Shown here: positions 3,615 to 32,000 of the stretch, piece after piece
Numbering within the stretch: position 1 is the first letter of the stretch
Layout of the letters: every line of letters begins with the position of its first letter
The notes under the pieces: generated by a model
The model's database searches: none
What the model saw: only the letters and a program-made list of their open reading frames with translations
What the model was told of the DNA's origin: nothing
Assembly (NCBI GenBank): GCA_032718475.1
Contig: JAUCBJ010007326.1
Location: 1 to 44,142, forward strand
DNA from: Nemertoderma westbladi
Lineage: Eukaryota; Animalia; Xenacoelomorpha
Direction of reading: 5' to 3'
Length of the DNA stretch: 44,142 bases
Translations under genes and position numbers: made by a program

Positions 3615-3812
3615 GGGTCTAAACTCTACACCGACAACCATTATTAAAGCGAATTAATAATATTATTTATTAATTGAGGGAAAGGAACAGGTTACAGTGG
3701 AAGGTTATTCTAAAAAAACAATAAACGAGTCACAAACTCAGGTTACATTTTCATATTTGCTGTTGTCGGCAGTGGTTGTCGGCTGTCGGATATCGGCGTA
3801 GTGTTTAAACCC
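3615..3812. mobile_element. Small MITE with ~20 bp imperfect TIRs
   Basis: GGGTCTAAACTCTACACCGA ... TCGGCGTAGTGTTTAAACCC; ACCATATTGT occurs close to both ends. Confidence 0.5.
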
Positions 3813-5075: not shown

Positions 5076-6330
5076 GTGAAGGAGGCTGCTCCTGTGTTGA
5101 TTTATTATCAACCATCACCATCCCTTCTTATTAATGATAATTCAACCTCGTATACAGGTTTTTATGATTTTAAAAATGGCGACTATACTGCTTTCAGTGC
5201 TTACATTAAGAATAGTAATATTATTACCAGGTATGAAAGTTGTGTTACGGTAGACGATTTTTATGAGACTTTTTCCTCAGTACTTAAGGAAGGCATAGAC
5301 AAATTTGTCCCTTTCAAACCTTTTAAACAACGCAAAAAGTATTACCCGCTTTTTGTTAGACGCCTTCAGAGGGCGAAGAAATTACTGTGGAGGAAACGAC
5401 ATAGAGAGAATGGGCGACAAGAATATTATCGTGTGGCAAAGGCTGCAGCCTCTGCAGCTCACCGCGCTACCTGCATCAAAGAGACTGAAATCCTAAACTC
5501 GGGTAACCCTGCTTTAATTTATAAATATATAAATTCAAAGAGAAAATCCACCTTGGGTATTGGCCCTTTAAAATTCAAAGGTGATACGGTAGTGGATGAT
5601 GCGACAAAGGCCCGTATATTTAACGAGGTGCTAACCCAAAATTTTACAGTTGATAACAATGTAAAGCATCAATATACCCAGTAAAGTGCATAGTAGTATT
5701 AATTTGTCGACTATTAATTTTAGCCCGGTAAATGTGTTAACTTTTTTGAATAAGTTGCCCAATAAGAAAAGTGGGACCCCTGACAACCTACCGAGTATTT
5801 TATTTCATCGTTTATCAGTGTGCTTGGCTAAACCATTATCTGTTATATTTAAACTCTCTTTTGAGACACACACACTTCCATCTATTTGGCTTACTGCTAC
5901 CATTATTCCTATCTTTAAAAATGGTGATCCTTGCGACCCCTTTAACTATAGACCAATATCATTAACTTGCATCGCATGCAAAATTATGGAAATGTGTGTC
6001 AAAAATGATTTATTATCCTATTTGCTATTGAATAAATTGATCAATAAGGCACAACATGGTTTCTTGTGCCGTAGGTCTACCAATACACAATTATTGGAGT
6101 GTGTTACAGATTGGTATAATATGGTTGATAATAGGCAAAATATCGATATAATTTATATCGATTTCGCCAAAGCCTTTGATTCCGTTGTGCACAGCAAATT
6201 ATTAATTAAACTGAGAGCTTATGGCATAGCTGATGACTTGTTATTGTGGCTTTCAGCCCTTCTGTCAAATAGGACACAGCGTGTTGTTGTCGGTAAATAT
6301 TGCTCAGATTTTGCACCAGTTACCTCCGGT
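5076..6330 (+). pseudogene. CR1-clade LINE ORF2 fragment (linker and N-terminal RT), frameshifted and 3'-truncated
   Basis: Motifs PIFKNGD, NYRPISLT, QHGF, YIDFAKAFDSV and RTQRVVV; ends at VTSG just before the expected VPQGS; frameshift near 5684. Confidence 0.92.
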
Positions 6331-8236
6331 ACAATATTATGGTGCAGGTTAACTGGCAGAATAACGTCATACAAGAGGCTGACTGAATTATAAAATTGAA
6401 TTACGCATCCAATCCTTGCGAGAACTATTCCGTAATTCAATTTCGAACGAAAATTAATAAAACGAAATAAATGATATTTAATAATAATTATGGTAGATTT
6501 ATGATATTAAGGCGAATTATATCACTTTTAAAATTTATAAAAATTTGAATCACGCATCCAATCCGCATGCGTATCGCATGCACAAGTCCGCACTTCAATA
6601 TTGCACCTAAATTAATAAAATGCAATAAATGACATTATATTTGAATAATTATGGTAGATTCATGATTTTAACATGAATTATATCATTTTTTAAAATTTCT
6701 AAAAAATGTTTAAAATTTATAAAAAATTGAATTCCGCATCCAATCCACATCCCGCATGCCCTACGCATGTGGATCGCATGCGTCTTTTTGACTGGGTATT
6801 TCTCCATTTGACGCAACACCGCCGCGGCCGCTATGAGGGAGGTGAATACCGCGGCCGCTCCTAAAGCCGCAGGCCATCGCTAACTATATAGGTTAACTTG
6901 GGATTCTGGGGGACTTTTCGATGAAGGAACAGACCAAATTTTTTTATTTTCTCACCAGGGGAGCGGCTCGGAATTCTAAGATATTAGCAACTCTAACATT
7001 ATTAAATCTAACCCTTCGACGGACACGGCGGACAAAAATCCGTCATTTTTTCGACAATTTTAAAATTTTTTTGAAAGGCGCTCTACAGTGGCTCGAAAAA
7101 ACCCTAGGTTATTGCTTAGCCGACGCCGGGATACGATAGAAGGGATTAATTAGTGAATTCGTTTTTTTTTTCAAAAAAGATTACCACGCCTTTTTTCCGA
7201 AAATGTCCGTCAAAGTTGAAAAAACGGACAAAATGACTTTGCGGGATCCGCTATAACTCGGCTAATATTAATCGTACGGGGACGAAAGTAACGCGGTTGG
7301 AAAGGGGAAGAGTGGTACTACCTTCGTATCGAATGGGGGTAAGATATTTATTAAAATTTCGGGTGGAAAAAGGGGCTGTAAATTTGTACGTTTTTGTCCG
7401 TCTTTTTTGGAAAACTTATTTCCGAAATGTTTAATTCGACAACGCGGGTAGGAATCCACTAATTCTTTTATGAAACTCGTAGAAGACCATTGGGGCTACG
7501 TTCCTATCGAATGGGGGTACAAAAAATATGTCGGCAATAGGGGCCAAAAAGGGCCAGAATTTGTAAAGTAGTTTTTATCGAATAATTTTTTATTTTTAAC
7601 TTTAGTTGGCTAAGGTACATTCTATACAGTCAATATCCATACGGGGAATTCAAATATGCTATCGGTTTTGCTCCAAGGATGATATTAAAAAATGAGGGCC
7701 AAAATTATAATTTCGCGCTTCAAACTTGCTTCGCGGGAAATCGTCTAGCTCGAAAACTACTTAACTTACGGGAGATTTGTTTACACAGATTTATAGTGCG
7801 TTAAATTATCTATCTAACAGCGTTAATCACTGCGCCGGAGGTATTATAAAACTGGGGCGGCAGGCGATCGTGTGAAATATAATATTTATAAAAAGGGACG
7901 AAATTTTTTTTTTTTTTAACAAATCGCTATTCCATTATAATTTAGCGTATTGCGCCAAAAGTACCTGTAAAAAGTATCAAATTAACTCCGCTATCTTTTA
8001 TCTTAACATATATAATTAAAATTACGAATTTTAAGGGTCGAAAAATATCGCGTTATTTTGGCCCTTTTTTTTAATTTTTTTGGGGCCAAAAATAACCCCT
8101 TCTTAAAAGATTAAGAAAAAAATTACGGCAAAGAATATACCAATTTTATTGAATTTGGACCACCAGAACCGAAGTTAGAGCGATTTTAGTGAAAAAATAA
8201 AAATAATTTTTTTTGCAAAAAAATTAAGAATGGTCA

Positions 8237-10355: not shown

Positions 10356-12102
10356 TTGACTACTATCAAGCCTAAATAAATTACAGTACATGCAGACTCC
10401 GAAATGGTTAGTTAGTATGCGTTCTAACCTAGTAGTACGACTTATTCTTTCGGGGGGGGGGGGGGGGGGGGATTTACCTTACAGTACTGGATGCCCCTAC
10501 TTTCCTAACCCGCACTTTATTGGACATACACTCTACATGCACTGCAATCCGTTCAGACCTATCAACAGTCAGACAACAGTCCAGCCTACAAATTATCTGT
10601 ACGATCTGAGCAGGCTTACACGTCTTCTGCTCAATATTAGCCTACAGATAAATAAAACTGACAGAAATAAGTAAACCATACAAAGGAATAAGGGGTGATC
10701 AATCCCTAATCCCCTAACAGCCTACAATATACAATATATCACAATCGAAATAATACTAGTACCTTTACTGCTGTAAGTACCGGTTCCGGTGGTTAGGTAG
10801 TTAGGCCTACAGGTTACCGGTCGACCGATACTTTTCAACTTTATTGCTTACTGCAATAAAGAAGCTATAACTGTTATTGTTCTTACCAGAACAATAGTCA
10901 ACTATATTTATTGCCTACACTGCAATCAGAGTTAATAACTGTTATTGTTCGCGCTTTTAGACCTTTAGCAGTTTAACCCGCTAATTTTAGGTGTCTTTTA
11001 GTTTGTAAATCGACTTTAGCCTATGACGAGTATTTGATACACTACATTAGCCGAAGCCAGCCTATGCGCGACCATTCACCCGCTGGATATACCCGGGAGA
11101 CTGGATTCGGGGGCTCTGACCTTATTGCGGTGTAGGCCTACTGTATTATTCGATTGATCGTTAATATATAATCTCTGACAAATATTATTCACTTTCGGGA
11201 AATATTAACAGTTCCCTTTGGACGTGGCGCTCTAAATATATAAACAGAGCTATGACTTACACTAAACACAACGGGATGGCTAATGATTCACGTATAAGGC
11301 GCATTCTTTAGGAGATGCTTTGTTATCTGTCACAGTCATGCACACTACCGGTACCGCACAATACTGCACACTGATCTGCCGACCTTCACTAATTTTAGTC
11401 ACATATAAAGAGAACAGCAATTGACCCATGTAGTACCTATGAAATAGCATTAGATTCACTCCAAAACCAATATCATATAAGTCACAATTGCTATATGTAA
11501 CCGGTCTCTTACCTTCAGTATATCAAGAAGATGGGGTTTTATGATTATTTCTCGATATTATCCAAATATAACAATTTTCCATCAACAGATACAATTAATA
11601 ACCGACAGTAAATAGCAGTAAAATAATGCGGTGAAAGATATGTATAGCATTTGACAGGCAGGATAACAGTTATACGTTCCGGTAATCAAAGCCGTTCTAA
11701 TGTTTTGGCTAAAGTCTGAAACAGAATAATTCCATAGCCGATGTTCATGGCATCTGTAAAACCAACACACTGAAACCTGTGCGCTGTTGTATGCAGCTTT
11801 CAACACAAAGAGAAATAGCTCTCATTGGCAGAACTCCAGATTCTATAGGTTCCACGAACGTCTAAATGCCAAACCTCCCTAGCCTTTGCGGCCCATAGCC
11901 AACACAAGGGTAAATCGCTCTGATTGGTCGATCATTGTTCTGATTGGTTAATCGAACAGAACGGCCATACGTACAGCAAATCGGCCAATCAGCCAGCAGA
12001 ATGCATCACTCGAGCAAGGCAGTTTTAGAGTATTTGAGCGCATTGAGGGAAAACTGGATTGCGGAGAAAAAGGGCCAGTTACATCCCGCAAAAGCTTTTA
12101 CA
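10356..12102 (-). mobile_element. Truncated, diverged sister of the BEL/Pao element: full LTR (12102-10946) plus ~590 bp of leader
   Basis: Reverse complement begins TGTAAAAGCTTTTGCG and ends AAAAGCGCGAACA. 10356-11830 aligns by eye to the reverse complement of 13060-14433; the U3-proximal part is more diverged. Confidence 0.9.
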
Positions 12103-12779: not shown

Positions 12780-13918
12780 TGTAAAAGCTTTTGCGTAATT
12801 AGCCGGTTATTTTCCCCGTAAAGTACTCTGTAGTTGGTTTACTGGGCATAAAAAGGCCGTGTCCTTACTGTACTGGTGTTTTAGAGGACATAAAAGTCAT
12901 TTCTTCTGTATGTGTACTTTAGAGGACATAATCCGCAATTTCGTGACGCAATAAGCCGGATACTCTTGAAAACAGTGTGGCTACCATGACGACGGCTAAC
13001 AGCTGATATTGCCACGTCGAACATTTCTTTGTTCTTTGTTCTCTCTTTGTTCGGTCGACCAATCAGAGCGTTTTTTGTCTCTGTGTTGGAGGTTGGATAC
13101 AGAAACTCAGTAATTCAGTGTATATGTTTTTGCCCAGAGCCTAAGAACACCGGCTTTTGGCACCTCCGTGTTTCAGTCTTTAGCTTAACATTAGTAGGCT
13201 TAATTATAGAACGTATATCTGTTATCTAAACATATCATGCATATCTTACTTAACATTACTGCTTTTGCTGTCGGTTATTCATTATATTTGTTGATGGAAG
13301 ATTATATTTGGAATACTGATCAATAGTCAGACACCCCAATCTTCTTGATATACTAAAGGTTAGAGAGACCGGTTACATATAAACGATTGCGACTTATGTT
13401 AAGTGGTGTGAAGTGAATCTAATGCTATTTTATAGGCCCTACATGTATTGTCTGTTATTCTCTTTGTATGTGACTAAAATTAGTGAAGGTCGGCAGATTG
13501 GTGTGCAGCATTGTGCAGCATTGTGTATGATTGTGACTGATAACAAAGCATCTCCTAAAGAATGCGCCATATACGTGAATCTATAGCCATCTCATTGCGT
13601 CTGGTTTAAGTCATAACTCTGTTTACATATTTAGAGCGCCACGTCCTAAAGGAACTGTTAATATTTCCCGAAAGTGAATAATATTTGTCAGAGATTATAT
13701 ATTGCGATCAGTCGAATAATACAGTAGGCTTACACCATCAATCATTAAGCTTCCGAATTCAGTCTCCCGGGTATATCCAGCGGGTGAATGATTGCGCATA
13801 GACTGGCTTCGGCTAATGTAGTGTATCAAATACTCGTCATAGGCTAAAGACTATCTATCATCTAAAAGACATCCTAATTTGGCAGGTTAAACTGTCAAAG
13901 GTCTTAAAAGCGCAAACA
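12780..13918 (+). repeat. 5' LTR (1139 bp)
   Basis: TGTAAAAGC...GCGCAAACA; differs from the 3' LTR by about 11 substitutions and one 10-bp duplication (TTGTGCAGCA at 13511), counted by eye. Confidence 0.96.
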
Positions 13919-13929
13919 ATAACAGATAT
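13919..13929 (+). promoter_or_regulatory. Candidate self-priming primer-binding site
   Basis: ATAACAGATAT abuts the LTR, lacks the TGG of a tRNA PBS, and is the exact reverse complement of ATATCTGTTAT at 13215-13225. Confidence 0.7.
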
Positions 13930-14202
13930 TGCTTCTGGATTGCGGCGTAAGCAATCAAGTCGAAAGTACCGGTCGACCGGTAACCTGTACGGCCTGACTG
14001 CCTGATCCCACTCCCGAACCGGTACTTACAGTACAGGTACAGCAGTATTATTCGATTTGATAATTATATACCGGTAGGCCTTAATAATTAATCAGGGACT
14101 GGCCGCCCTGGTTTTTTATTGAGATTTTACTTGTTTCTGTCAGGTTTTATTTATTTGTAGGCCAGTATTGAGCAGAAGGCGTGTAAGCCTGCTCAGATTG
14201 TA

Positions 14203-14780
14203 CAGATAATTTGTAGGCTGGACTGTTGTCTGACTGTTGTTAGGTCTGAACGGATTGCAGTGTGTGTAGAGCGTCTGTCCGATAAAGTGCTGGTTAGGAA
14301 ATGTAGGGGCTTCCAGTGCTGTGAGGTAAATCCCCCAGTGAAAGAATAAGTCGTACTACTAGGTTAGAACGCATACTAACTAATCATTTCGGAGTCTGCA
14401 TGTCCTGTAGTTTATTTAGGCTTGATAGTAGTCTGCCAGCGTTTGGTCTGTACTTTGTTTGTGTAGTCTGTACGGGTAGCGTATAATTTTATTTAGATAA
14501 TTTGTAGGCTGGATAGTTGTCTGGCTGTTGTTGGGTTTGAGGAAATTTCGGTGTGTGTAGAGCATCTGTCCGATAAAGTGCTAGTTGGGAACGTAGGGGC
14601 TTCAAGTGCTGTGAGGTAAACCCCCTGTGAAAGAATAAGTCGTACTACTAGGTTAGAACGCATACTAACTAATCATTTCGGAGTCTGCATATACCGTAGT
14701 TTGTTTAGGCTTGATAGTAGTCTGTCAGTATTTGGTCTGCATTTTGTTTGAGTAGTTTGTACGCGTAGCGTAATATTTAT
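14203..14780 (+). repeat. Two ~291 bp tandem repeats in the retrotransposon leader
   Basis: AGATAATTTGTAGGCTGGA...GAAAGAATAAGTCGTACTACTAGGTTAGAACGCATAC... starts at ~14203 and again at ~14494. Confidence 0.9.
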
Positions 14781-16118
14781 TATTCAGAGTTTATGCGATT
14801 ATTCGCAACATTCATTCCCCAAGTTTATTCCTACAGTAATTGTGTTTGTTATACATACCGTTATAGTTAAACTAACCCCGGTACTACATCAGGGCTGCTC
14901 GGCGTAGGTAAAGACTGGAGATTTTATGCTTTGGTCACTCCGGCAGATACCGTGGTTCTTTTAGCTGTTCAAGTATTTTTAACTACTAATTATTTGTTGT
15001 ACAAGTACTTGTACCTAATTTAGGGTTTAGTGTACTGTACTTTCCGAAGGTGATTAGTGTGTAGGCAGTATATTTGTGTTGTAAAGTGGTTAATAGGCAC
15101 GTTGGTTCTGGTAGACCGCGGTAATTAATCTCTAGGTAGGAACACTCCGTGATACATAACGTAGTACCTATAGCGATACGGTTATAGGTCGTCAGGCGGT
15201 GGTATTTTCCTATCTGGACAACGCAGTATATTTACTACTACTTATTATTTTCAAATACCGTAGTAACCTGTCCGTTGTAATAACCAGATATTCTAACCCT
15301 TTGTTAGGCTGGTTAGTAGACTTCTTGTAAAATTACCCTAAAAATTCGTATTTGTGTATTTGTAATTAAATTTTTGTGTTTATTTAGAGATTGTAATCTC
15401 AACCCGAATTGTACGTAATTTGTAGTATTAAGTAACTTAGGTAAATTAGAATTATTTGTTTTAGTGTCTAACAAGTAGCACTCCACTGAGAGCGCACAGC
15501 TTATGTGTAGTGACTCCCCCAGAAATAATAACATTTATTTCAAACATTGACAAAACCCATTAAACGGGTATATATATATTATAAATCAACTCAAACGATT
15601 TATAAATAGTAGGCCTGCCATACAACAATTAGGTCTCAATATCAGTTGGACTACTGCTTAAATAATGGTAATAAAGTAAGTTAAAGTAACCAAGTAACCC
15701 TTAAAATTCAGAAATTCAATTATTCTAAAATAATTGATATACCGGTATTTACAATAGGCTTATTATCTTTATTTCTATAAATTTAGGCTGAAATTATACC
15801 GGTATTCTGTAATTAATTCTAGTCTGTAATTATACTTATATATACACATTATAAGTGTAAGCTGTATACCGGTATTCACGATAGGCCTATTATATATATA
15901 AATTTAGGCTGAAATCATACCGGTATTCTGTAATTAATTCTAGTTACTAATAATACTTATATATACTATAAGCATACCGGTATTCTAATATTATATATAT
16001 ATCACGCTACACTGAGTAGCAGTATCGGTAATTAATTACTAGGCTAGCAGTTAATGCTGAATTACTAGACTTGCTTAGACTGTAATATAGCAGTAGGCAT
16101 TCAACTGTGTAAACAAAC

Positions 16119-17613
16119 ATGTCTGATACTAAGCAGAACCTGTCAGACAGTTTATTAGATGTAACTATCTGCGACTCAGATAAGGGTGTAGAACCGTCTA
16201 CACCTAAGTTCAGTTCACCTCCCACTGTGAGGAAGGTCATCCCTCCAGTAGTAATAACAGAACCTAGGCTGGTCCAACATCGTAGGTCTATCATAGGCAC
16301 TCGAGCTCAGGTCAAGCGGGACCAAGAAGCAGCGGAACAGCAACAACCCGCGAGCCAAGAACTTATTTCTCAGCGGCCCGACAGCTCCAGTAGTGAGGAT
16401 ACTGTAGAGCTGACACCCGAGCGCGGAGCAAAGATGACGGATGCGGTTTATTCGGATCCCCTTCTCATCCTGCCTGCAGCCGTACTCACTAGGATATTGA
16501 TCGCGGTGGAAGAACACCAGATCGATTGGGCGAGAAGTCAGCGATCAACTAAAGATAGTTATGCGGGATACACAAGGGAAGAACTGAAGTCTATTGTCGA
16601 GTCGCAATGGAACTTCCCCGGACCCGGACTCCCGTTTGATTTATCAGAAGCTGCCTGGGAAGACATACACCGGATGGGAGTAACCAAGGAAACCATCGAT
16701 CCAGCTGTGTGGAAGAGGTCCGCAGCCGGATACGCACAGGGATTCTTCAGCTCTATGGAGCGAGTAGAAAGAACAACTGTTTCAACAACCCCAAGGACCT
16801 CAAGAGCAGGGACAACTGCTTTATCAAGTTAGAGAAAGAATTCTACGAATCAGGCTAATCTTATCGGCCTTTGAAGAGGCTTCTAAAAGAAGACAAGACA
16901 CGTCGTTGCAAGTTGCCGTAAAGACTTGGTTTCAGCGGGTGAGTCTCCAGGTTCAAGGAACAGCTCAGTGGAAAGCTCAGCTGGAGGAGCGCTCAACCCA
17001 TGGAGAATCAACAGACGCTACTTTTTCCCAAGTGGAAAGTGAAGCGACGGCAGAGAAACCGCATAAGAGGGATGCCATTGACATCTATCTGTCAGACTAT
17101 CAGCGTTTTTTAGGAGATGAAGAGTTGAGGAGAAGGTTAGATGGACTTAGCCCTAATAGTGAAGGAGCCCAGAGTGTGTTGGACGCAATTGATGTGGATA
17201 GGATAGCTGCGAACCAAGCTAAATTTGATGAAAGTATCCGCATCGCTAAGGTTCAAGAAGAACAAGTAAAGAAAAAACGTATAGAAGATAGAAAGACAGC
17301 AGCAGCGGCAGTGGCAGCGGCAGAAGCGGAAAGAAAAGCGGCAGAAGTGGATAGAAAAGCGGCAGAGGCAGCGGCAGAGGCAAAAGCGGCAGCGGCAGAG
17401 GCAAAAGCGGCAGCTGCAGCAGTAGAAGCCAAAAGAAAGGCGGCCGAAGCGGAAAGAAAAGTGGCAGCAGCAGAAGCGGAAAGAAAGGCGGCCGAAGCGG
17501 AAAGAAAAATAGCAGTGGCAGAAGCAGAACGGAGGGCATCTGAAGAGACAACCCAACTAGAGTTGGAAAATCTTCAAGAGAGACAAGACAACTTTAATAA
17601 ACTTTCCCAGTGT
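16119..17613 (+). CDS. gag: ORF1 / N-terminal Gag region with Ala-Glu-Lys coiled coil; one +1 frameshift near 16765
   Basis: ORF 16119-16832 joins the frame of 16906-17628 via EQLFQQ...RILRIRLILSAFEE if one base is removed. The helical region followed by AAEAERK repeats resembles BEL Gag N-termini. End placed at the predicted 5' splice site. Confidence 0.6.
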
Positions 17614-18633
17614 CTTTTCCCAGGGTAGCACTATTGGAATGGAGGTGTTACATCGGAATGGGCAGGTTCTGATGATTCTGTTGGTACTACTATTGGAATG
17701 GAGGTGGCACCCGGAATATCGGCTGCAAGGAGGGGTTGGTGTTGTAGTGTGGTCCGAGTGAATGATACTCTGGATTCTGTGGTGTGTGTGGACGATCAGT
17801 GGCAGTTTGCTTGAGCTTTCTGTTGCTGTGGGTACGTGGTATACGTGAGTGTATGTATGGGCACTGCGAGTGAGTATGGGAACCCTTCCCGGTTGGTTCA
17901 GTCGCCGCTGGTATTAGTAGGACCATATCTTTACTGCGCCCCAGCATACTTTGTGCACACTAAGTTATTTTGCCCTGACGGCAAAATAAGGTACTCTCGA
18001 CTCTTTTGACAGTCGATACAATTTTGTCCCCTCTGATTTTGTCCCCGATTTTGTCTTTCCCGATTATGTCCTCTGTGTGTGCATGGTATGTGTCAGATTT
18101 TGTGTTTACCGTAGTGTACTTGATATTGTGAACATCTGTTGAGTACACGTGTACAGTGACTGGTAAGTGGTTACTTGTTCCTAGCTTTCGAGCTAGTCAG
18201 TATTGTTTGCGGAACCGACTTCCCCTCAATACTGCCGGCGAGGCGGGTGAAAACGTGTCAATATTCCATGTTGGGTAGCGCAAGCCCACTTGGGACAAGA
18301 CCGTCGGTTTGGCTCAAGGGCGACCTTGATGCTCGATCGCTATCGACTGGTCCACCCGCCGGTTGACTCTCTGAGTTGGCTCAATGTACAGTCAGGCCAC
18401 AGTAAGTTGACAGTAGCCGACCATCTGGCTACACTGACGAGCTGTGCCGGTGTGATCGGGGGATTGAAAAGTGAACCCGGGAAGCATCGGGCTACCCTCC
18501 GGCCCGGTCTGATAAAAACATCAGTCGGACTGGCCCCAAGGGTAGTGGAAAAGCGTCCGCCTCGTGGGTGCGCCTCGGGGAGGAGCCCAGAAGGACGTAA
18601 GCGATACATCATCTGAGGAAGGTGATACCACCG
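17614..18633 (+). ncRNA. Group I self-splicing intron (ID-like core at 18242-18394; boundaries predicted)
   Basis: P3 GGCGGGTG (18242-49)/CACCCGCC (18353-60); P4 ACG[T]GTC/GACCGT; P5 with GCAA loop; P6 CGGTT/GATCG with TCAAGG-GCGA-CCTTGA; P7 T[C]GACTG (18343-49)/CAGTCA (18389-94); P8 GGTTGACTC/GAGTTGGCT; J8/7 CAATGTA; P1 with U17613-G17628 wobble; P10 CAGGGT/ATCCTG; terminal CCG at 18633. Confidence 0.82.
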
Positions 18634-18680
18634 ATCCTGAAGGCGGAGGAAATCGATCTCGCCTAAGCAGACGTAAAAGA

Positions 18681-21600
18681 ATGTCCCACCGTCAGAAATT
18701 GCCTGATTTGCCCCCAGCTGTTAGAAGGCAACTAAATAACACAGATTTAGGTAGTACAGAACCCACAGACCAAATAATTAAAATAAAAAGACTCCCTACT
18801 ATAGTAGATGAGCCTGAAATAATTAGGCCTGTTCTTGAAATCACCCCTTCGGTGATAGAGACACCTGTGCTCCCTGAACCTACCTCTAAATTCCCTCTGC
18901 ACAGCACTAAGCTACCTGTGCCCAGTAGAACAGCCCATGAGACAGTTCAGGTCCTGGACTCCGAGCGAAATATTCATGATTTGTCGCCCGTTGTCCCTCG
19001 TCCGCCCGCTACAACGTTGGCGAATCCCGCTTCGGCGGTCGAATGGGTGGATGAGAGACGATGGGGGATGGATCTCCTGCTCGGACAGATGCAGGAGACC
19101 GTTCAGCAATTCAAGGGCACAGTAAGGGAAAGTAGGTTAGAGTTGCAAGAAGTGCAGCAAAGTATCGCGCTAGAACGCGATAAATTAGTAAATACACAAA
19201 GGGGTATACCACCACCCCCTATAACAATGTGTCAACCTGTTAGGTCTGAAGTATCTCATGCGCAAGGTGTGGAGCCTACACGCATCTATACTGTTAGTGT
19301 TAGTGAAGTAGAAACTCCTATAGTAAACCCTATTAAGGGTAATTATAAACCTGTTGACAGTGATATTCCCTATAGACTTGATAATAATCCGAGAAATTTA
19401 TATACCAATAACTCGATATTAAATAATACGATGGCCCAAGAAAGTTTTACGCGTCAAATGGCTAGAACCGAAGCCCGTCAAGTGGTAAGGATGGGAGAGA
19501 TCGTCAAGTTCAATGGAGATGAGATGAAATGGTTACCTTTTAATGAATATTACAAAGATAACATACAGAACTTCGTGTTATCTAACGGAGAAAAGCTTAG
19601 ATTCCTCATCGAGTGCTTGGAGGGATCTCCCAAGTTAATGGCGTTAAAGTTTATTGGACATCCAGATGGATTAAGACAAGTTTGGGATACAATAAACATC
19701 AGGTATGGTAATAGGACTAACATAGCTAGGTATTTGTATGCAAAATTAATGGCGCCCCGAAAGTTTCTTAGCAGCGGGATTATAGAGTTTTCCGACGAAA
19801 TTCAGGAGATCTGTAGACAGCTAGATTGGTTAGGTAAGTCTCATGAATACCAGAATTCTATGGTTGTAGGAGCCTTAGCATCAACTCTGCCAAAGGGTGG
19901 AGTAGGTACACGCTGGGATAAGAAAGTGTTATATATGATGGAACAACAACAACGAGACCCTACCATGGCTGATCTCATGTCATTCTTGGATGGAGAAGTG
20001 AAATTACAGCTCCTAAAACTGTCCAGAGAGAAGACACCGGAAAACAAGGTAAGTGAAAAACCCGTCTCTAGGAGAAAGGTAACACCAGTGTGTTATACAG
20101 ACGACGGCGAAAGCCAGACTTCTCAAGGAGAGGATAGCGGGAAAGACACTGACAGATCTTATTATGTCAATAAAATGCCTAAAGATCAGGTAAGTAAATT
20201 CAAGTCTCGAACCAATGACAGGAGAGAACAGGTAAGAAAAACTCCTCCTACGTCTCCTAAGAGAATTCAAGTAAGAAAGCCCGAAGAAAGAACGAGTGTG
20301 CACAACGTTACTCAAAGTAAGGTAAGTAACATCAAACCAAAATGTGTGCTGTGCGACGGGCCCCACCGTTTGAATATGTGTGATAAATTCCTAAAGAAAT
20401 CATTAAAGGATAGATGTGAAGTCATGTGGGATAAGCGGTTGTGTTATAATTGCCTCAGACGAGGACACCAACGGCGAACCTGTTACTCCGACGCAAGGTG
20501 TGCAAAGTGCGGCGCAAAACATCATATCTTGTTGCACACGGAATTCGAACGAAACAGCCCGAGTCAGGTAAGTGAGTCCGAACTACATGTCCAATTCAGT
20601 GATGTGAACGACACTGACCAATATTCTGAGATGGAAGGATTCTATACGGACGAATTCTCCGACGAAAACGAATCCTGTTACCTGACAAATACCGCAGTGT
20701 ATCGAGCACTTACGTATGAAAAGGACACCGACAGCGAGCTCCCCCCAACTACTTCTGATCGACAACCATCTTGGAAAGCGCCACCTTCCAATGTAGGAAT
20801 CCGAGAATTTCCTGTAGTACAGGTAAGGGTCCACGGATCTAAAAGGAGTTATATAGTTAACGCCCTCCTTGACCCCGGTAGCACTGGAACATTCATCGAC
20901 AAAGAACTAGCCGAAGACATCTTTGCTGGACAACCCAAGTTCCGAACTAAGTTAAACATGTCAGGAATTATGCATGTTTGGAAATCTACAGTAATAGCGG
21001 ATTATTATGTAGGTGCGTTGTCCACCCCCCAGGATGAACTAGGAGAACACAGCATAAGGTCAGTAAAAATGGTGGCGATAAAGAACTTCGGTACCAGCCA
21101 ATTAGAGCCTTATAACTGGGATGAGGACGATTTCACCCAGCAGTTTGATATACCTAGATTCAACACCGATTACCCTGGAGTGCCAATACTCATCGGTCAA
21201 AATGCGCATGAAGCGCTCGAGACATTGGAGAAACGGCCTGCTCAACCGCAACCCCTACAAGCTTATGCGGGAAGAACTAGAGTGGGTTGGTACTTTACTG
21301 GCCCTTCCCGTAGAACTCTCATGGAAAGATTACCGAAAGACCAGGTATGTCAAGTGAGAGAATGGGAAGTCGAGAGCAGTGAGTTAGACGATCCAACTGA
21401 GGGAACACCATACTCCTCAGATAATGACGATATCAACTCCAATGTAGATCAATGGAGACATTGTCCCGAGACGATCAATCTAGCCGACATCGCTTCCAGA
21501 GGAGCAACTCCTCAAGAACTGATAGATACTCCAGCGTGGTTAGGTGGACCCGACTTCCTAAGTAAAGAAGATGAATGGCCTCCTCATCTTACCCCGGCTA

Positions 21601-21773
21601 AGATTAGACAGGCCAAGGGAGCGGGGAAAGTAACACAACAACTCAATCGCCCAGCTGGTCGTTTATGTTTACTGGAAAGAAACCGAAAACTGTCCGGAAA
21701 CTATGGAAGGCAAGATACTCTTCCCACGACCACCTCCCTAATCCAACAAATATCTAGGGACTCCATAACGTAA
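18681..21773 (+). CDS. gag-pro: BEL/Pao Gag (capsid, zinc knuckles) - aspartic protease, fused in frame to short RNase H-end and integrase C-terminal remnants
   Basis: Frame open from 18564, first ATG at 18681. KFNGDEMKWLPF...KLRFLIECLEG capsid region; CVLCDGPH..C, CYNCLRRGH..C, CAKCGAKHHILLH; ALLDPGS; RTRVGW; WRHCPETINLADIASRG...WLGGPDFL; RPAGRLCLLE. No RT or DDE core. Confidence 0.92.
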   Translation: MSHRQKLPDLPPAVRRQLNNTDLGSTEPTDQIIKIKRLPTIVDEPEIIRPVLEITPSVIETPVLPEPTSKFPLHSTKLPVPSRTAHETVQVLDSERNIHDLSPVVPRPPATTLANPASAVEWVDERRWGMDLLLGQMQETVQQFKGTVRESRLELQEVQQSIALERDKLVNTQRGIPPPPITMCQPVRSEVSHAQGVEPTRIYTVSVSEVETPIVNPIKGNYKPVDSDIPYRLDNNPRNLYTNNSILNNTMAQESFTRQMARTEARQVVRMGEIVKFNGDEMKWLPFNEYYKDNIQNFVLSNGEKLRFLIECLEGSPKLMALKFIGHPDGLRQVWDTINIRYGNRTNIARYLYAKLMAPRKFLSSGIIEFSDEIQEICRQLDWLGKSHEYQNSMVVGALASTLPKGGVGTRWDKKVLYMMEQQQRDPTMADLMSFLDGEVKLQLLKLSREKTPENKVSEKPVSRRKVTPVCYTDDGESQTSQGEDSGKDTDRSYYVNKMPKDQVSKFKSRTNDRREQVRKTPPTSPKRIQVRKPEERTSVHNVTQSKVSNIKPKCVLCDGPHRLNMCDKFLKKSLKDRCEVMWDKRLCYNCLRRGHQRRTCYSDARCAKCGAKHHILLHTEFERNSPSQVSESELHVQFSDVNDTDQYSEMEGFYTDEFSDENESCYLTNTAVYRALTYEKDTDSELPPTTSDRQPSWKAPPSNVGIREFPVVQVRVHGSKRSYIVNALLDPGSTGTFIDKELAEDIFAGQPKFRTKLNMSGIMHVWKSTVIADYYVGALSTPQDELGEHSIRSVKMVAIKNFGTSQLEPYNWDEDDFTQQFDIPRFNTDYPGVPILIGQNAHEALETLEKRPAQPQPLQAYAGRTRVGWYFTGPSRRTLMERLPKDQVCQVREWEVESSELDDPTEGTPYSSDNDDINSNVDQWRHCPETINLADIASRGATPQELIDTPAWLGGPDFLSKEDEWPPHLTPAKIRQAKGAGKVTQQLNRPAGRLCLLERNRKLSGNYGRQDTLPTTTSLIQQISRDSIT

Positions 21774-22309
21774 CAACATACGGAGTGGGTGTGTGACTAT
21801 ATTATTTTATATTTATTTTTATTATTTTATATTATGTATGTATTATTATGTAATTTTATTATAATCGTTTTAATTAATTTTATTTAGTAGCATGTTATTT
21901 TAGCGATTATTTAGTAGATTAGTGCAATATATTCGCGTTTATTACGTAATTACTTATATTATATATTTAGTGCGACGGCGAGAAATAATTATTTTTCTCT
22001 TTCCTTACTGTCCGTATTACATTATAAATACGTAACTACAGTAAGATGAAATGTCCGTACTTATTAAAGTACAATAAAGCCACTACTATATTCAAGTATT
22101 ATTGGTAGGCAGAGTATTAGGAATGCAAAGTTCAGATCCTCGTGTCTCGGCTAAACCAAGCTCTGGGTAGACCACGACTTGCCTCTTCTCACTGACATTG
22201 CTTCGTGCGATATTGCTCTCATACCGTATATTAAATAATACATATAGTAGCGTGATGTCCCTTTAACAGTAGCATATAACGCAAAATAAATCTGTTAAAC
22301 CCTTTGACC

Positions 22310-22585
22310 ATCTGCAATTCTAGTCGATTAAGATATCGCGGCACCCACCGATATTCTTGAAAGACAAAATTCTAGAATCAGTGGTTAACGTCCCCAGACA
22401 AGTTCTGGAATAAACTGGTGCCCATCCTAAATATTAATTATTAATATTTACAAAATCTGTCAAATTTTAGATCCTTTAACATTCTAGTCGATTAAGATAT
22501 CGTAGCATTTACCGATACTCTTAAAAAGACAAATTCATAGAATCAAGGATCATATGTCCCCAGATATGCTCTGGAATCAAATTGT
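22310..22585 (+). repeat. Two ~165 bp-spaced imperfect repeats in the 3' region of the element
   Basis: TTCTAGTCGATTAAGATATCG...AAGACAAA...TAGAATCA...GTCCCCAGA...CTGGAAT at ~22318 and ~22482. Confidence 0.75.
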
Positions 22586-23387
22586 GTCAATTTAACTATC
22601 AAATAATAAAATTTCAGGGAATAAATTTAAATTCATACTTTAATGAATTTAATAAATTGCAATTTTATACAATTTATAACATTCCCAAAATTCCATTAAT
22701 TAATAGATCATGGGAGCGGAGATTCACTATATTAAGTGTATTGTGTGTGAGAATCTCCAATGTATAGTCAATAGCCGATAAAATTCATAAAATCATATAT
22801 AGAGAGGATATTGACAATTAAAGAATTACTATTAAATAGCATCCCAGATCTGTATGCATGAGAATTACCCTAATTCTACCGCTAGCTTTCCATAATGTCA
22901 CCATGGCAACAACCACGCTAGAATTAGAAGTGAGTTAAAAGAACAATAAAGGGCTTGCGCATTGAATAGCATACGGAATAAATAGCACACCACTAGTATC
23001 CAAGGATACATAATAACAACGTGACATTCTGGAAGGCACTTGACTAACGGACAAATGACCCGAATGTGTGATAGAATGTGTACCATTTGTGACTGTTACG
23101 TGGAATTTGTGCGTTTGTAGGTGAATGTTACTACTAAGGTGTGTTTACAGTAGCGAGTCGCAATTGTGAAAGTAACCCTAACTCTCCAGTAAGAACCTGA
23201 AGTATATCTAAGCCTTTGGGACGGACGGTGGAGTGGCTCGTGCTGGTTGTTGTAGTCGTTGTGCAGCTACGACGTTGGCGATAGGCACATCGGCGAAAGT
23301 ACACCAGCGCTGAGGATCTCGCACTGTCCGGGGGCAGAGAGGGGTAGGCAGCGACGCCCGCTCGCCTAAATATAAACTCATTATAAT

Positions 23388-24983
23388 ATGGATAAACTTA
23401 TATAGCAGATATGATTGAGTTGATAGAAGATGATCTTGGTATCACGGAACGATATACTCTACCTTTATAAGCGTTTGTTGATAGCTTGATACGCGGCAAC
23501 GCTGGTCCAACTACTACGGAGGACGATGGTCGTTATATCTAACCGCCAATGTCCCGGGAGCAACTTGCGTGTGGGTTAGACTGTAGAAAATTCACCGCTC
23601 GCTATACGCATCGTAATGGTACGTATATGGACTTCTTAACTACTGGTCATCCTATCGACCTACACGATACGAACGATATAGACACCAAAGGGAAATGGTT
23701 TATTTAAATATCATACCCAGCGGAAGCGGAACGATAAACTGAGACTCGAACACGAAAATTCTATTCGAAACCGACTCGAAAGTGCAGATGTCGAAGAGCC
23801 GGACAAACGCAGCGACTCCACCAAATACCTGGAATTCTTGAGAGAAACCTATCTCGATATTACCAGTCAACAGAATCTAGAAACTCGATATCCTCAAGGT
23901 ATACATCATGACCGCATGGTAGAACTCAAACGGCTCTATTCCACTATGATGTATCTTACCGCCGATCGATCGCTACCTGTTGTACCGGATAGCTTCGAAC
24001 GGATGGAGGAATATTGTAAGCTGGAGAAAGATCACTCGCGTTTCCCCTACAAGACGTGCGTTTTTGGTATTATTGCGATGAATGCCCAAGACCCAACCAA
24101 CAAACGGAAAGACATAAACATCCGCGGAGACGTTGCTTTAAACACGGTTTTACTCGCTATACTTACGGGAGTTTCGAGCGAAACTTGTTCGATGTATCAC
24201 CTACGCTCGTTCGACTCAGACGATCCTTAAATAAACCAATGATCAGAGTTTCGGAATACTCGATCAGAACTCCTCATTCCCTAGTGAGACTTCAGACTCT
24301 TGATCCTATTAGTATGACGGATCCTCCCGAGCTGTACTCACTGCTCAAAGATCTAGTGTTACCTGAACAATTAGTCGGTGGCACCCCAGTTGTGGGCTTC
24401 CTAGATATTAGCCCATTCTACCTAGCCGGATTGGGACGCGGACATTTAATATCGCCGTTTAACCCTTACCATCGTCCCGGCTTAACACGATATAACCTGT
24501 CACCAAAGTGGCGGAGAACGTTGTACCAAACGAGTTAAACGCTATTCTACAAAGATCAGAAAGGAAACCTGCGTTTGTTCAGATAAACGTAAGTTGTAAC
24601 AGCAAGTCCAAGCGATAAACGAATTGTCTTTATCTCAGTTCGATTGTGAAATCCAGAATCTCTAAGAAGATATCGAACTTAGACAACCCCATTCTCTGCG
24701 AGAGTTTTTGGATGAACGTATCCAGCTACGAGCGGAGGAAAATCAGCTCGAGGAGAAGCATATCGAAACTGCGGATACCCCGACCATAATCCTACACCTT
24801 CTGATGCAATCATATTGCACCCTTCACCCAGGATTTATAGCCCTCCTAGTAAAGTGGCTCGCCCCAAAGAGAAAAGGACTCTTGCTAGCCTCAAAAAACT
24901 GCGTAAACGCCGTCTGCTTAAGAAAGACTAACTGTTTAGAGTATCTTTATATTTTAGAAACTGTGATTTGTTATATTTTATAG
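23388..24983 (+). pseudogene. Decayed accessory coding region of unknown function before the 3' LTR
   Basis: GC-richer stretch with consecutive or overlapping protein-like frames (from 23388 with stops; ~23720-24230; 24056-24538; 24708-24983). No recognisable domain. Confidence 0.45.
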
Positions 24984-25001
24984 ACTTAAATCCCATTTTC
25001 T

Positions 25002-25009
25002 GGGAGCGG
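25002..25009 (+). promoter_or_regulatory. Short polypurine tract
   Basis: GGGAGCGG immediately precedes the 3' LTR. Confidence 0.6.
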
Positions 25010-26138
25010 TGTAAAAGCTTTTGCGTAATTAGCCGGTTATTTTCCCCGTAAAGTACTCTGTAGTTGGTTTACTGGGCATAAAAAGGCCGTGTCCTTACTG
25101 TAGTGGTGTTTTAGAGGACATAAAAGTAATTTCTTCTGTAGGTGTACTTTAGCGGACATAATCCGCAATTTTGTGACGCAATAAGCCGGATACTCTTGAA
25201 AACAGTGTGGATACCATGACGACGGCTAACAGCTGATATTGCCACGTCGAACATTTCTTTGTTCTTTGTTCTCTCTTTGTTCGGTCGACCAATCAGAGCG
25301 TTTTTTGTCTCTGTGTTGGAGGTTGGATACAGAAACTCAGTAGTTCAGTGTATATGTTTTTGCCCAGAGCCTAAGAACACTGGCTTTTGGCACCTCCGTG
25401 TTTCAGTCTTTAGCTTAACATTATTAGGCTTAATTATAGAACGTATATCTGTTATCTAAACATATCATGCATATCTTACTTAACATTACTGCTTTTGCTG
25501 TCGGTTATTCATTATATTTGTTGATGGAGGATTATATTTGGAATACTGATCAATAGTCAGACACCCCAATCTTCTTGATATACTAAAGGTTAGAGAGACC
25601 GGTTACATATAAACGATTGCGACTTATGTTAAGTGGTGTGAAGTGAATCTAATGCTATTTTATAGGCCCTACATGTATTGTCTGTTATTCTCTTTGTATG
25701 TGACTAAAATTAGTGAAGGTCGGCAGATTGGTGTGCAGCATTGTGTATGATTGTGACTGATAACAAAGCATCTCCTAAAGAATGCGCCATATACGTGAAT
25801 CTATAGCCATCTCATTGCGTCTGGTTTAAGTCATAACTCTGTTTACATATTTAGAGCGCCACGTCCTAAAGGAACTGTTAATATTTCCCGAAAGTGAATA
25901 ATATTTGTCAGAGATTATATATTGCGATCAGTCGAATAATACAGTAGGCTTACACCATCAATCATTAAGCTTCCGAATTCAGTCTCCCGGGTATATCCAG
26001 CGGGTGAATGATTGCGCATAGACTGGCTTCGGCTAATGTAGTGTATCAAATACTCGTCATAGGCTAAAGGCTATCTATCATCTAAAAGACATCCTAATTT
26101 GGCAGGTTAAACTGTCAAAGGTCTTAAAAGCGCAAACA
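25010..26138 (+). repeat. 3' LTR (1129 bp)
   Basis: Direct repeat of 12780-13918, followed by the GGTAT TSD. Confidence 0.96.
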
Positions 26139-26204: not shown

Positions 26205-27330
26205 GGCTTCAAGATAAAGGATCGAAACACTTCGTAGTAAAAAACGTATTGTAATAGTATATCCAAAACAATTTAAGAGACACTTTGACTTTTACTTCAT
26301 ATACGGTTGACTCCCCTAATCTTGTAATTATTACGATAAATTAGGGATTTTATTAATAAGTGGAAAGATGTTAAAGTTATTAAATGAGTGTACGGAAATG
26401 TCTCATCCAACAAGATCCAAAACCTGTGAGAATGTTTGGTAATGTAAATACCCACAAGGAGAATCGTCCTCTCCGCTAGATCCTTTATGCTTCTGGTCCG
26501 GTTACACAACGTTTGGGAAGGTTTGTAGTGTGAAAGAACATTTGGCTGCAAACACGAGGCTTTTCTGAAGAACACAACGATGTTTTACTTTGGATTAATA
26601 CCCTAACCTGTAGTTTTGCCACGATTCCACCTTCTGTTTCTGTTCATATGTTTAGATCTGTCAAATTTTTTCCTATCTGTTGATGATGGGATGGGTATAA
26701 ATGCGGTCGAGGAAATTCTATAACGAAATAGAACTAATATAAAACAGAGTGATCCCCCCAATGAGTGCATTATAGAGGCATTTAAGATTTGTTTGGAAAG
26801 CAATAACTGTAAGTTTCTTGAAAACACTATACGCAGTTAGGTGGATCAGTTATGTGTCCATCGAATTCCTGTACATATGCTGATATGTGGGGTGCAAAAT
26901 TTATTGTCAAAGCCGTTTCTTCATATCCGCATCCACCAGTAGCATATAAAAGGTTTCGAGATGACATATTATCTATTGGCATAACACTGACGGATGAGGA
27001 TTTATAGAGCTTCGTAACTTATTTAAATAAAACTGTTCTACCTGGGAAGATTCTCTTTTAAAATATAAGAAGTTAGGGAAGGTAGAGAAGTTAATTTCCT
27101 TGACCTCACAATCATTTGTAAGTAATAATGGACAGATATCAACAAAGAATTACCACAAACCTATGGATGTTCACCAATATTTATGTCACACAAGCGCACA
27201 TCGCTGGTCGCAAATCCGAACAAACCCATAAGAGTCGCACTGCGATTTCATAGAAATAATTGTAGCTTGAATGAGGATTTATATGAAAATCTAAGAGAAT
27301 ATGGTTTAGCTTTTACTGCTGCATCCTACT
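26205..27330 (+). pseudogene. Degenerate Penelope-like element RT
   Basis: Motifs across frames: QDKGSKHFVV, THKENRPLR, ICLESNNCKF, YKRFRDDI, VNFLDLTI, YHKPMDVHQYL, PIRVALRF. Confidence 0.85.
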
Positions 27331-29038: not shown

Positions 29039-32000
29039 GGTTGCGTCGCGTTTCGGCAACTGTCACGTTTAGGCAACTCAAATTCGCAACTGAACAATTA
29101 CGTTTCACCAACTGCTATAGTTGTGTTTCGGCAATTTCAGCCTTTCGGCTAACTGAAGTTGCGTTTCGGCAACTAGGTCACAAACCTCGTATGTAATGTA
29201 ACTGTGACTACATTCATTATGAAAGTAAATTATAAATTATGACAAGTTTAAAAGTTACTTATAGTTATTGATGGCAGAGTTGTTAATTGGTCATTTATAT
29301 GTATACATTGCCGGTTTGCACATATGGCAGTGATAAAATATGATTTTGTGGTCTGATTGATAAAGGTGGAATTTTTCTCCACGAAAATTAGAACTAATCA
29401 TTGTACGCTCTCCATTTTGGGCGCAAACTGATCCTGAGATATGTCGGATTCTAAATTTTGTCTACTGAGTCGAACGCCAGTTGAAAAACCAAAATTGAAA
29501 AGGGGAATAGATAAACAGTACTGTGTGAATTAATATCAGATTTAATTATAATATCAGATTAAATTAATAGACTTATCATATATCGAATAATATGGGGACA
29601 ATATACAGTATGGAATTAATAACATCAGTTTCTATATAACTCAAAGTAGTGTTGGAGTAGGCTTGGGTAAAATAATGTAGAATGTAAATGAATAATGGGA
29701 AACGTAATGAGGCAAAGGTAATAAATAATACTGATTTGCTCTGCCCTACGTTGATACAATGCGATGATGGTGACGTTGAGATTCCACCTATCTCTATACT
29801 GTAGGCTCTATACAGTATCCAGGTGGAGAGCGCAAATGGAGCATTTGCGCCGTGCGAGCGCATGGCCGACGGCGTTGGCCATGTGGTATTGTTTTAGAAT
29901 ATTACAGTATTATTAATCCCATGTAAAGTTAAAAGTTAAAGCCCATATTGCTGATGGAAAATAACAAATGCCTACCTTGATTTTGTTAAGGTCAGTTTTG
30001 TTTATACTTGAAGGCTTACATATATAAGTATACATGGGCATAATATTCCAAATACTTTTGTTGCGCCTGTCGATTCGTATGAATCGACAGGCGCATAGAC
30101 CCCCCCAATTTATATTACTTGCGCATGTACATTAGTAGGCCTACAGAAGTACTTGGGTATTCCTGTATTCACAATATTCAACTACCATATATGAAGATAG
30201 GGTACGTTTTGACTAAAATTCTGCATCTGATGTAACATTTTGACTAGGCCTATCTGCCAAAAGAACCTCCACTATATCTGCCCTTCATGTAGGCCTACCA
30301 TATTATTAAATTATTATTTATACTTCAAAAATTTGTGGCACGAAACACATCACACGAAATGGAATTACAATAAAAGCAGGCCATTTAAAACCATCTTCAA
30401 TCAATTAATTCAGCACCTTGGAAAACCTAATAATAAAAATTATTCAAATTTGTTGAATTGACAAAGGTGGTTCTGAATTAACGAGACGAGGGTGGACCCA
30501 GAGCTATCGAGGGTGGTCCCTGAATTAACGAGTGAGGACCCAGAGTTAATAGGGATATTCCCTGGATTAATAAAAAATAATTAATACCAAAACTAATAAC
30601 AAAAAAAACACCCAAAATATAATACCAGCAAATACAGAAATATACTCATATTAACAAATAACACAAAAATAATTATTTAATAAAAAATTTAATATTGAAC
30701 TTTTAAAGCTCTAAAATCATAAAGAAAACCCATGAAGGTGTATTCCAATTACAATTGTTCAACCCCAGTGATTTTAAAATACACCAGACATGTCAGAGAG
30801 CATTGTAAGTATCATTTCCTTTGTGCAAAAATTAATTCTTCTTGATATATTATATGCAAAATTTTCATGCATATTCAAACAATCAAAAGCGTGAAACCGG
30901 TAGTCATACAGCAATTGGATGTCTTTAGTAGGATCGGAAACACTCTAGAGAACATTTAAAATAAACTTCATCATTCCAAAGTGAATACTTCTTGAGATAT
31001 AGCCTTTCAAAAAATTAACCAATCATAGACCACGTAGCAAACCCCGACAATCCAACAGCTATAAAACATCGTCAGTGAGTTAGGACATACTCCAGAGAAT
31101 ATTCTTAGCTTTCAAACTTCATCCCAAAGTGAAGCAAACTCGAGTTATCGTCGTTCAAAGCATTAGCCAATCAGGCGCCGTATCTGATGACCACGGTATG
31201 GGGGTGACTTGGGACCTCAACGCGAGATTCAGAACACCATCCAAAACATATTCGCATAAAATCTTATCACTAATTGTCAAGGCCTAGGTAAGTTTTCAGC
31301 GTTTGAATATTTGAGCCAATCAGGTGCCAGATACAGTGACCACGGTACGCGCATGACCTGAGACCCCAATGGAAGGTTCAGAGTACTGGCCAAAACATTT
31401 TCGCATCAAATTGTACCGTAAAATGTTACTGCATATCACAGCAAAGTCACCTACCGGTATTTGATCAGCAAAAGATCAGGTCTGACTGTGTGATTTGGGT
31501 CTGATCATATTTTCCTTTGCATGCATAAGAAGCCCTTCAATGGTCACTATCCGCTACATTGATCTAATCCATATCGTCAGATAGCCCGTGTTGCTGTTAT
31601 AAGATTTATTTTGATTTGGTGCGATTTGGGTAATTTTAGTTTTTTTGGGGTAAACTATGGTATTAATAACTTCCAGTAAAATCCCAACATTAAGAACATT
31701 GCTAGAAACGTCAATCATCTATAGCCTACAAACTAAGGATAACTATCAGCCAGTTACTGTACATGGGCAGATGGGTATACTAAGTACAGGAGTACCCAGT
31801 ACTTGGATATTCCTGTATTGACAATACTCAACTATATGAAGATAGGGTACGTTTTGACTAAAATACGGCATCTGATGTAACGTTTTGACTAGGCCTATCT
31901 GCCAAAAGAACCTCCACTAAATATGCCATCTCACTACAGACTGTGGAGATAGCTACCGGCAAGAGGTGCTTGGTATATAGTTTTAGTCAGTAATGGCATA

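Follow-up and report, generated by a model that had tools for sequence, protein, structure and literature searches.

A group I intron in the gag region of a BEL/Pao-type LTR retrotransposon and its candidate mobility at the RNA level

The host retrotransposon

The window, by which we mean the whole stretch of 44,142 nucleotides analyzed here, contains an LTR retrotransposon on the plus strand (12780-26138), which we classify as a non-autonomous BEL/Pao element on the basis of its paired LTRs, its target-site duplication and a gag with a DUF1759 domain. The 5′ LTR (12780-13918, plus strand, TG...CA) shares 98.2% identity with the 3′ LTR (25010-26138, plus strand), and a 5-bp target-site duplication, GGTAT, precedes the former (12775-79) and follows the latter (26139-43). 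The TG...CA termini, the short duplication, the DUF1759 gag with zinc knuckles and the aspartic protease are all those of BEL/Pao elements; the reverse transcriptase, RNase H and integrase of an autonomous member are missing, and Pfam searches over the open reading frames of the element returned no match to any of the three. The window copy would therefore need both reverse transcriptase and integrase in trans.

The coding region of the element, all on the plus strand, opens with a frame of 239 aa (16113-16832) that has no Pfam match and, by its position, is probably the start of gag. In the window copy, this frame is out of phase with the next one, a 286-aa frame with an Ala/Glu-rich repeat (16768-17628) that forms the 5′ exon and is common to intron-free copies up to 17602; a homology search with it gave two weak matches and no informative homologue. 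Its stop codon occupies 17626-28 and begins on U17626, the inferred last base of the exon. Since this second frame break lies upstream of the 5′ exon frame, selection on the window copy's own gag cannot be assumed. The 3′ exon (18604-21773) encodes gag with DUF1759 and zinc knuckles, a protease and then a motif close to the end of the RNase H region, as identified by Pfam and protein alignment. Across the long ORF at 18546-21773, Pfam returned DUF1759 with an E value of 5.6e-11 and, weakly, an aspartyl protease (E 0.035), and alignment to a full-length Pao protein (P0006) follows gag and then jumps from the protease region to residue ~1162. DUF1759 is present in 12 of 12 homologues of the gag part, of which both named ones are from insects. 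BEL/Pao elements are described as a metazoan subclass (PMC3118150), and judged by the type of element the host genome is probably that of an animal.

Several other features accompany the element. Three overlapping or adjacent ORFs of 182, 172 and 105 aa (23682-24983) without a Pfam match directly precede the 3′ LTR, and part of the LTR and 5′ leader recurs in inverted orientation, with ~84% identity, on the minus strand at 10358-11621. Elsewhere in the window are a 3.1-kb unit in about three tandem copies (29817-39040), a fragment of a LINE reverse transcriptase (5058-6393) and a broken frame at 26300-27200 that looks Penelope-like by eye and has no Pfam match.

The ribozyme core and its relatives

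Between the two gag exons lies a group I intron of 977 nt (17627-18603, plus strand), whose 3′ end is given by contigs and whose 5′ end is predicted (see below). The catalytic core, P3 to P8, spans 18242-18394 (plus strand), as identified by a covariance model and a check of each pairing. P3 (18242-49/18353-60) is Watson-Crick at eight of eight positions, P4 (18253-59/18299-304) includes an extra base, T18256, and P6 (18305-08/18336-39) carries a GCGA-capped hairpin (18314-29) and is followed by a J6/7 of CTA. P7 opens with U18343-A18394 and a bulged C18344, followed by the guanosine-site pair G18345-C18393, and P8 is formed by 18361-69/18373-81. The order of helices P3 to P9 is thus the canonical one for a group I intron, and the P3/P7 pseudoknot is present. 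Upstream of P3, the P2.1 region (18181-18241, plus strand) contains two hairpins (18181-96 and 18198-234), both of which pair. The 3′ domain (18395-18603, plus strand) comprises P9, a P9.1 with the motif TGATC...TGAAAA...GGGAAG, two further hairpins and the terminal G18603, and folds better than 200 of 200 shuffled sequences (z -3.6). The long 5′ peripheral region of ~500 nt (17672-18180, plus strand) varies among copies and shows no coding signal; P2 has no confident assignment in it, and its segment 17824-18130 gives no folding signal (z -0.64). Short repeats occur here as well, namely an 18-nt repeat in the intron's 5′ end with copies 59 nt apart (17630-17706), a 40-nt hairpin missing from some copies (17787-17826) and four short TTGTC-type repeats (18020-18075).

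A covariance model, R1, built from 39 relatives with the window left out, assigns 104.1 bits to 18230-18399, and none of the 22 further window matches listed exceeds 14.6 bits; on held-out relative loci R1 gives 47-135 bits (24 matches at 23 loci). Because the relatives were collected with two motifs taken from the window, the R1 score of the window is partly circular; P3, J3/4 and the P9.1 motif, however, were in none of the collecting patterns and yet are common to the window and its relatives. Among the 39 relatives, two-sided changes occur at all eight P3 pairs, 98.8% of 936 alignment cells pair versus 22-55% in slid controls, and in every one of the 39 the bulged base of P7 covaries with the first pair of that helix (U-A/C in 16, C-G/A in 12 and A-U/C in 11), the window having the combination (U-A with bulged C) of the 16. 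The ribozyme core is real, far beyond chance. A preliminary description of this DNA had proposed that every core helix pairs in the right order, with two P2-type hairpins ahead of P3, inside the gag of an LTR retrotransposon; the pairings of P3, P4, P6, J6/7, P7 and P8, those of both hairpins and the 104.1 bits in R1 bear this out, and the LTRs, the DUF1759 gag, the R1 score and the flanking frames support the location. It mentioned neither the extra base in P4 nor the occurrence of the intron end at several sites.

The same description had suggested a search with the Rfam group I models. This search, which included RF00028, found no group I match in the window; nor did Rfam detect the motif at 19 of 20 relative loci, the exception being L025 with a match under the gathering score, or at any of the 13 relative loci of a second check. 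As Rfam is blind to most relatives, fungal mitochondrial ones included, its silence on the window reflects a limit of the model. Pfam searches for an intron-encoded endonuclease gave no match in six frames of 17627-18196, antisense included, or in a 121-aa frame over the core, so that homing at the DNA level has no visible engine here. A spliceosomal intron is unlikely, as the ends read AG...CG, and a lariat-capping role was set aside by reasoning from the standard core and the lack of an endonuclease message downstream.

The relatives come from overlapping pattern searches, two of which yielded 54 and 34 stretches from viruses and one 49 from metagenomes. The subgroup pattern had no match in prokaryote genomes, a window-specific pattern none in metagenomes and the P4-variant pattern none in viruses; blastn of the core and of relative L002 found no match among phage records. 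Of 62 distinct cores, 39 picked for diversity were aligned, excluding the window. Hosts of the relatives include fungal mitochondrial cob, cox1 and nad5 genes, as judged from flanking translations, giant-virus capsid and polymerase genes, and short eukaryote-like contigs. The highest identity to the window core is 73% over 177 columns (L009). In a tree of 67 core rows, the window falls in no supported group and lies outside a supported 12-row clade of cob and nad5 rows (99/97); the P9.1 motif is present in 33 of the 67 rows, the window among them.

The fungal mitochondrial introns (cob, cox1 and nad5; L003, L016, L030, L056 and L099) share the core motifs and the P3/P4/P6/P7 layout of the window, but they are organellar and mostly carry endonuclease-like ORFs, and the cob and nad5 rows lack the P9.1 motif. 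A resemblance to subgroup ID introns of fungal mitochondria had been noted previously; by sequence, the introns nearest to the window are not those of fungal mitochondria but others, in giant-virus genes and in eukaryote-like contigs. The label ID is one that we presume to apply to these cob, cox1 and nad5 introns. The available text of one source names nad5 as a host of ID introns and does not name these positions (PMC6279837). ORF-less introns of giant viruses (L002, L004, L005, L025 and L061, in capsid and RNA polymerase subunit genes) interrupt protein genes and resemble the window in the U-A/bulged-C P7, the P9.1 motif, the terminal motif and the guide hexamer; they differ in having a DNA virus as host and a length of ~0.5 kb. 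They are related in kind to the introns of chloroviruses, an example of which has been classed as IB (PMC7019647).

Introns of this subgroup interrupt major capsid protein genes at L004, L005, L009, L017 and L042, for which the best solved relatives are 6ojn and 7yjl, which we take to be of iridovirus and marseillevirus type, respectively. A report on four invertebrate iridoviruses found no group I introns in them (PMC4149023); given the presumed iridovirus-type hosts here and the failure of Rfam to detect the subgroup, such introns may be under-annotated. At L017, L025 and L104, two subgroup introns lie 460-820 nt apart in one gene, and the first splice site of L025 looks by eye like C-A, not U-G. 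A further 11 subgroup members are found on short, nuclear-DNA-like contigs (L071, L082, L088, L103, L057, L065, L067, L076, L085, L097 and L101) with microsatellites, ciliate-type codon use and no viral or organellar gene; the flanking frames of nine of these gave no Pfam match (L085, L088 and L097 were covered partly or not). Finally, L086 carries an RNase H frame in the ciliate code (1-801, Pfam E 4.4e-18) upstream of a full intron (1555-1729) with a good P1, and from this arrangement may be a second retroelement host.

Intron ends and variation among copies

The stretch or part of it is found in six public runs from four studies, and we compared contigs of four of the seven runs listed, X1, X3 and X4, which are DNA runs, and X5, which is only guessed to be RNA. 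Intron-free gag contigs depart from the window at 17602 (25 in X1 and nine in X3) and rejoin it at 18604-06 (11 in X1, 10 in X3 and one piece in X5). Intron-bearing pieces in X1, X3 and X4 stop at 18603 with other sequence beyond; the X1 pieces end there, and loose ends of X3 and X4 start there. The intron's 3′ end is G18603, and the insert thus ends on the terminal G of a group I intron in contigs of all three runs. Other terminal-G candidates (18449, 18559 and 18633) are ruled out, since the contigs end at 18603. The last of these was the 3′ splice site of the preliminary description, and it lies in sequence common to the intron-free copies. Because these copies include 18633, G18633 is exonic, and the P9.0 (18395-96/18631-32) and P10 (17621-26/18634-39) proposed along with it pair with exon sequence.

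G18603 is also joined to gag at two further places. One X1 contig joins it to 19144, behind a second gag site (19138-19143, plus strand; shorter side 28 nt), and one X3 contig joins it to 19182, behind a third (19176-19181, plus strand; shorter side 29 nt); each joint is seen in a single contig, has unassigned letters between its two parts, and has a 5′ junction that no contig covers. In one X4 contig, a further and different sequence lies behind G18603. G18603 is joined to gag in contigs of two studies, with the intron sequence covered in three. In X1 and X3, the gag flanks exceed the insert about tenfold in summed depth, which is not a copy number; in X4, by the same measure, the intron has a depth of 1,100-6,800 (bins 17935-18600) versus 62-112 for the gag flanks. 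This excess, together with the further flank in X4, suggests that the intron has other hosts. Upstream of 17610, some of the intron-bearing contigs diverge from the window copy, and intron-free ones do so after 17602, so that the window copy may have arisen by recombination between two gag variants.

Comparable ends are found among the relatives. L017, L090 and L120, with ends read from the host frame, terminate in TAAGCG like the window. L094 has the exact same anatomy in filled and empty copies of one site, a repeated non-coding unit present with the intron (95-904) and without it (empty site at 2667) on one contig; of the relatives, L094 is the one for which the intron ends are proven. The unit is also represented by L095, L081 and L060, the last of which resembles a 5′-truncated copy in that its match to the family begins at about P4.

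The 5′ splice site is likely at U17626, as judged from the position of the stop, the phase and the guide pairing. An intron of 17627-18603 links both gag frames in phase, whereas the 1020-nt span of 17614-18633, with its 5′ site at 17613, is not phase-compatible, and we regard 17627-18603 as the likely intron in its place. Of the 10 U positions in 17603-17626, four are phase-compatible, and two of these (17617 and 17626) have a six-pair P1 within 70 nt. The predicted P1 (17621-17671, plus strand) pairs the exon end 17621-26 with a guide at 17666-71 at six of six positions, including U17626-G17666, and encloses a hairpin within its 39-nt loop; a P1 of four to six pairs with a U-G at the 5′ site is thus present at the predicted position. 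The guide at G17666 ranks first of 172 candidates (17630-18241) over the sites at 17626, 19143 and 19181, with 14 of 15 pairs beyond the U-G. It pairs at six of six positions with 19138-43 and at five of six with 19176-81, both of which end in U; for two gag positions drawn at random, a U at each and pairing of this quality to either full-match guide are expected in ~2 of 10,000 cases. In the intron-free contigs, the base before 18604 is likewise a U, with five of six pairs to the guide by eye, and the guide hexamer 17666-71 is identical in L004 and L017. The P1 proposed previously (U17613-G17628) has four of five pairs beyond the U-G on paper, and its guide has one of five with the site at 19181.

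Some features of this site are weaker. Full pairing with 17626 is also available to a second guide (17972-77), the second phase-compatible position, U17617, has a weak P1, and the window lacks the AA-CAG spacer found behind the guide of most relatives. At the 3′ site proposed here, P9.0 has one of two pairs, and no convincing P10 was found by eye for the 17626/18603 sites; P10 is optional in group I introns (PMC3679873). A guide at 17612, with ~13 first bases of the intron lost, pairs at four, three and three of five positions with the three sites versus five, five and four for 17666, and was rejected.

Variation among copies spares the core. The 40 variants listed of 70, which are unphased, comprise two in the core (170 nt), 28 in 17824-18229, eight in the 3′ domain and two in 17614-17823, and so few listed variants in the core have a probability of 0.006-0.02. 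The preliminary description had looked to compensatory changes among copies for support; in 18230-18603, seven of seven listed variants at paired positions keep the pairing, provided that the unphased 18493 and 18544, a two-sided pair change among copies, change together. In one X4 contig, the closing C-G of the hairpin at 18181-96 is swapped to G-C. In the 5′ region, two of eight variants on correctly placed helices break a pair, with three rows on two helices uncounted. As for the extra base of P4, T18256, a minority of the contig depth in X1, X3 and X4 lacks it, and the relatives L071 and L082 also have it; it is thus a natural variant.

Proposed mobility, alternatives and significance

We consider it likely, with a probability of roughly two in three, that this group I intron rides the retrotransposon and moves by reverse splicing with the help of the family's reverse transcriptase. 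Under this proposal, the exon end 17621-26 would pair with the guide 17666-71, a free guanosine bound at G18345-C18393 would attack after U17626, and the freed exon would then attack after G18603, joining the exons at 17626/18604. Unspliced RNA would stop at 17626-28, and removal of the 977 nt would link the flanking gag frames. The released intron RNA would pair with other U-ending hexamers of gag RNA, which its terminal G would attack, and the reverse-spliced gag RNA would be copied in trans by the family's reverse transcriptase into a chromosome. Because gag RNA is reverse-transcribed and integrated in any case, the usual bottleneck of mobility by reverse splicing would fall away; once in the element, the intron would also be multiplied passively with each copying of its host. 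The occurrence of the intron end at several sites suggests such mobility at the RNA level. Reverse splicing of rDNA introns has been demonstrated in yeast and E. coli as well as in vitro (PMC3679873), reverse splicing through guide pairing has been described (PMC8393795), and spread by this route has been inferred from trees (PMC1299323). A 2013 review states that experimental evidence is lacking for the route as a whole, with reverse transcription and integration included (PMC3679873). A broader picture, to which we give about even odds, is that of an RNA parasite of an animal LTR retrotransposon that splices, reverse-splices into gag and is written into chromosomes, which would amount to the complete, long-proposed path of mobility at the RNA level occurring in nature, with the same Rfam-invisible subgroup in nuclear retroelements of other eukaryotes (L086) and giant viruses as a likely shuttle.

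The same observations can be read in other ways. The intron could stem from a single entry as DNA, with a giant virus or another repeat as its source, and have multiplied with the retrotransposon without splicing any longer, its core simply inherited and the other G18603 joints being deletions or chimeras. The weak predicted P9.0 and P10, the missing AA-CAG spacer, the non-autonomous host copy with its further frame break and the single contigs behind each of the other joints would all suit such an inert passenger. DNA capture, however, offers no reason for an end exactly at the terminal G, for a start at a phase-linking U or for repeated occurrence after sites that end in U and pair with a single guide, and the variants among copies spare the core and keep its pairs; we therefore judge this history improbable. 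Marginally less credible is a ribozyme that is active at one ancestral site, with the extra joints arising from side reactions within the same RNA, namely hydrolysis at the 3′ site and attack of the terminal G downstream, that became fixed as internal deletions upon reverse transcription. The element may also use slow splicing to ration Gag-protease relative to a short upstream product. The two mapped extra sites do belong to the same gag, 540-580 nt further downstream, there is an overlap between stop codon and 5′ splice site, and 3′-site hydrolysis followed by terminal-G attack is a known pathway (PMC3679873). The X4 contig with yet another flank and the X4 intron depth far above that of the gag flanks speak against confinement to one site.

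It is very improbable that the intron does not belong to an animal nuclear genome, and comes instead from a protist or fungus, a contaminating contig or a viral-host chimeric assembly. Similar introns do occur in ciliate-like contigs, and a search with the LINE reverse transcriptase gave no named animal host among the 120 matches listed. Here, however, the element around the intron has paired LTRs and a target duplication, contigs from two studies join the intron end to gag and those from three cover intron sequence, the two named gag homologues among 12 are from insects and BEL/Pao is described as a metazoan subclass (PMC3118150). We thus retain mobility by reverse splicing as the preferred reading. 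With target, guide, filled and empty alleles and a source of reverse transcriptase in one repeat family, the open question of mobility becomes directly testable.

How far the locus departs from known systems depends on the comparison. Nuclear rDNA introns (IC1 and IE; Tetrahymena and Didymium) share the predicted chemistry and the nuclear location, but they belong to other subgroups and are confined to rRNA genes of microbial eukaryotes (PMC3679873). Group I introns have also been reported in chlorovirus protein genes expressed in nuclei (PMC7019647) and in protein genes of Polinton-like viruses of protists (PMC12220804). The latter lie, as here, in protein genes of mobile elements in nuclear genomes; they differ in that these are protist DNA elements without an RNA intermediate, with introns of 309-376 bp in the cryptophyte cases (PMC12220804). 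The preliminary description had called the locus a new genomic niche for group I introns. In light of the chlorovirus and Polinton-like-virus reports, the niche is new as an LTR retrotransposon of a probable animal, and not as any nuclear gene outside rDNA, given that nuclear-expressed protein genes had already been reported as hosts. Our literature search found no description of a group I intron in an LTR, BEL/Pao or animal retroelement; supplementary repeat annotations could bear on novelty.

Small ribozymes of retrotransposons lie outside the coding frame. The hammerheads of Penelope-like elements and retrozymes are catalytic RNAs of eukaryotic, including animal, retroelements (PMC4209133, PMC5680766); unlike the window intron, they are short cutters and not splicing introns. 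The 2013 review places all known nuclear group I introns in rRNA genes (PMC3679873), and a 2024 review describes animals as devoid of group I introns except for a few sharks and basal lineages (PMC10964413). Both statements would have an exception in an intron of intact appearance within the gag of a multi-copy LTR retrotransposon. If our reading is correct, Pol II messages in animal cells would seem to be within reach of a group I ribozyme, and annotation based on Rfam would seem to miss this subgroup of introns.
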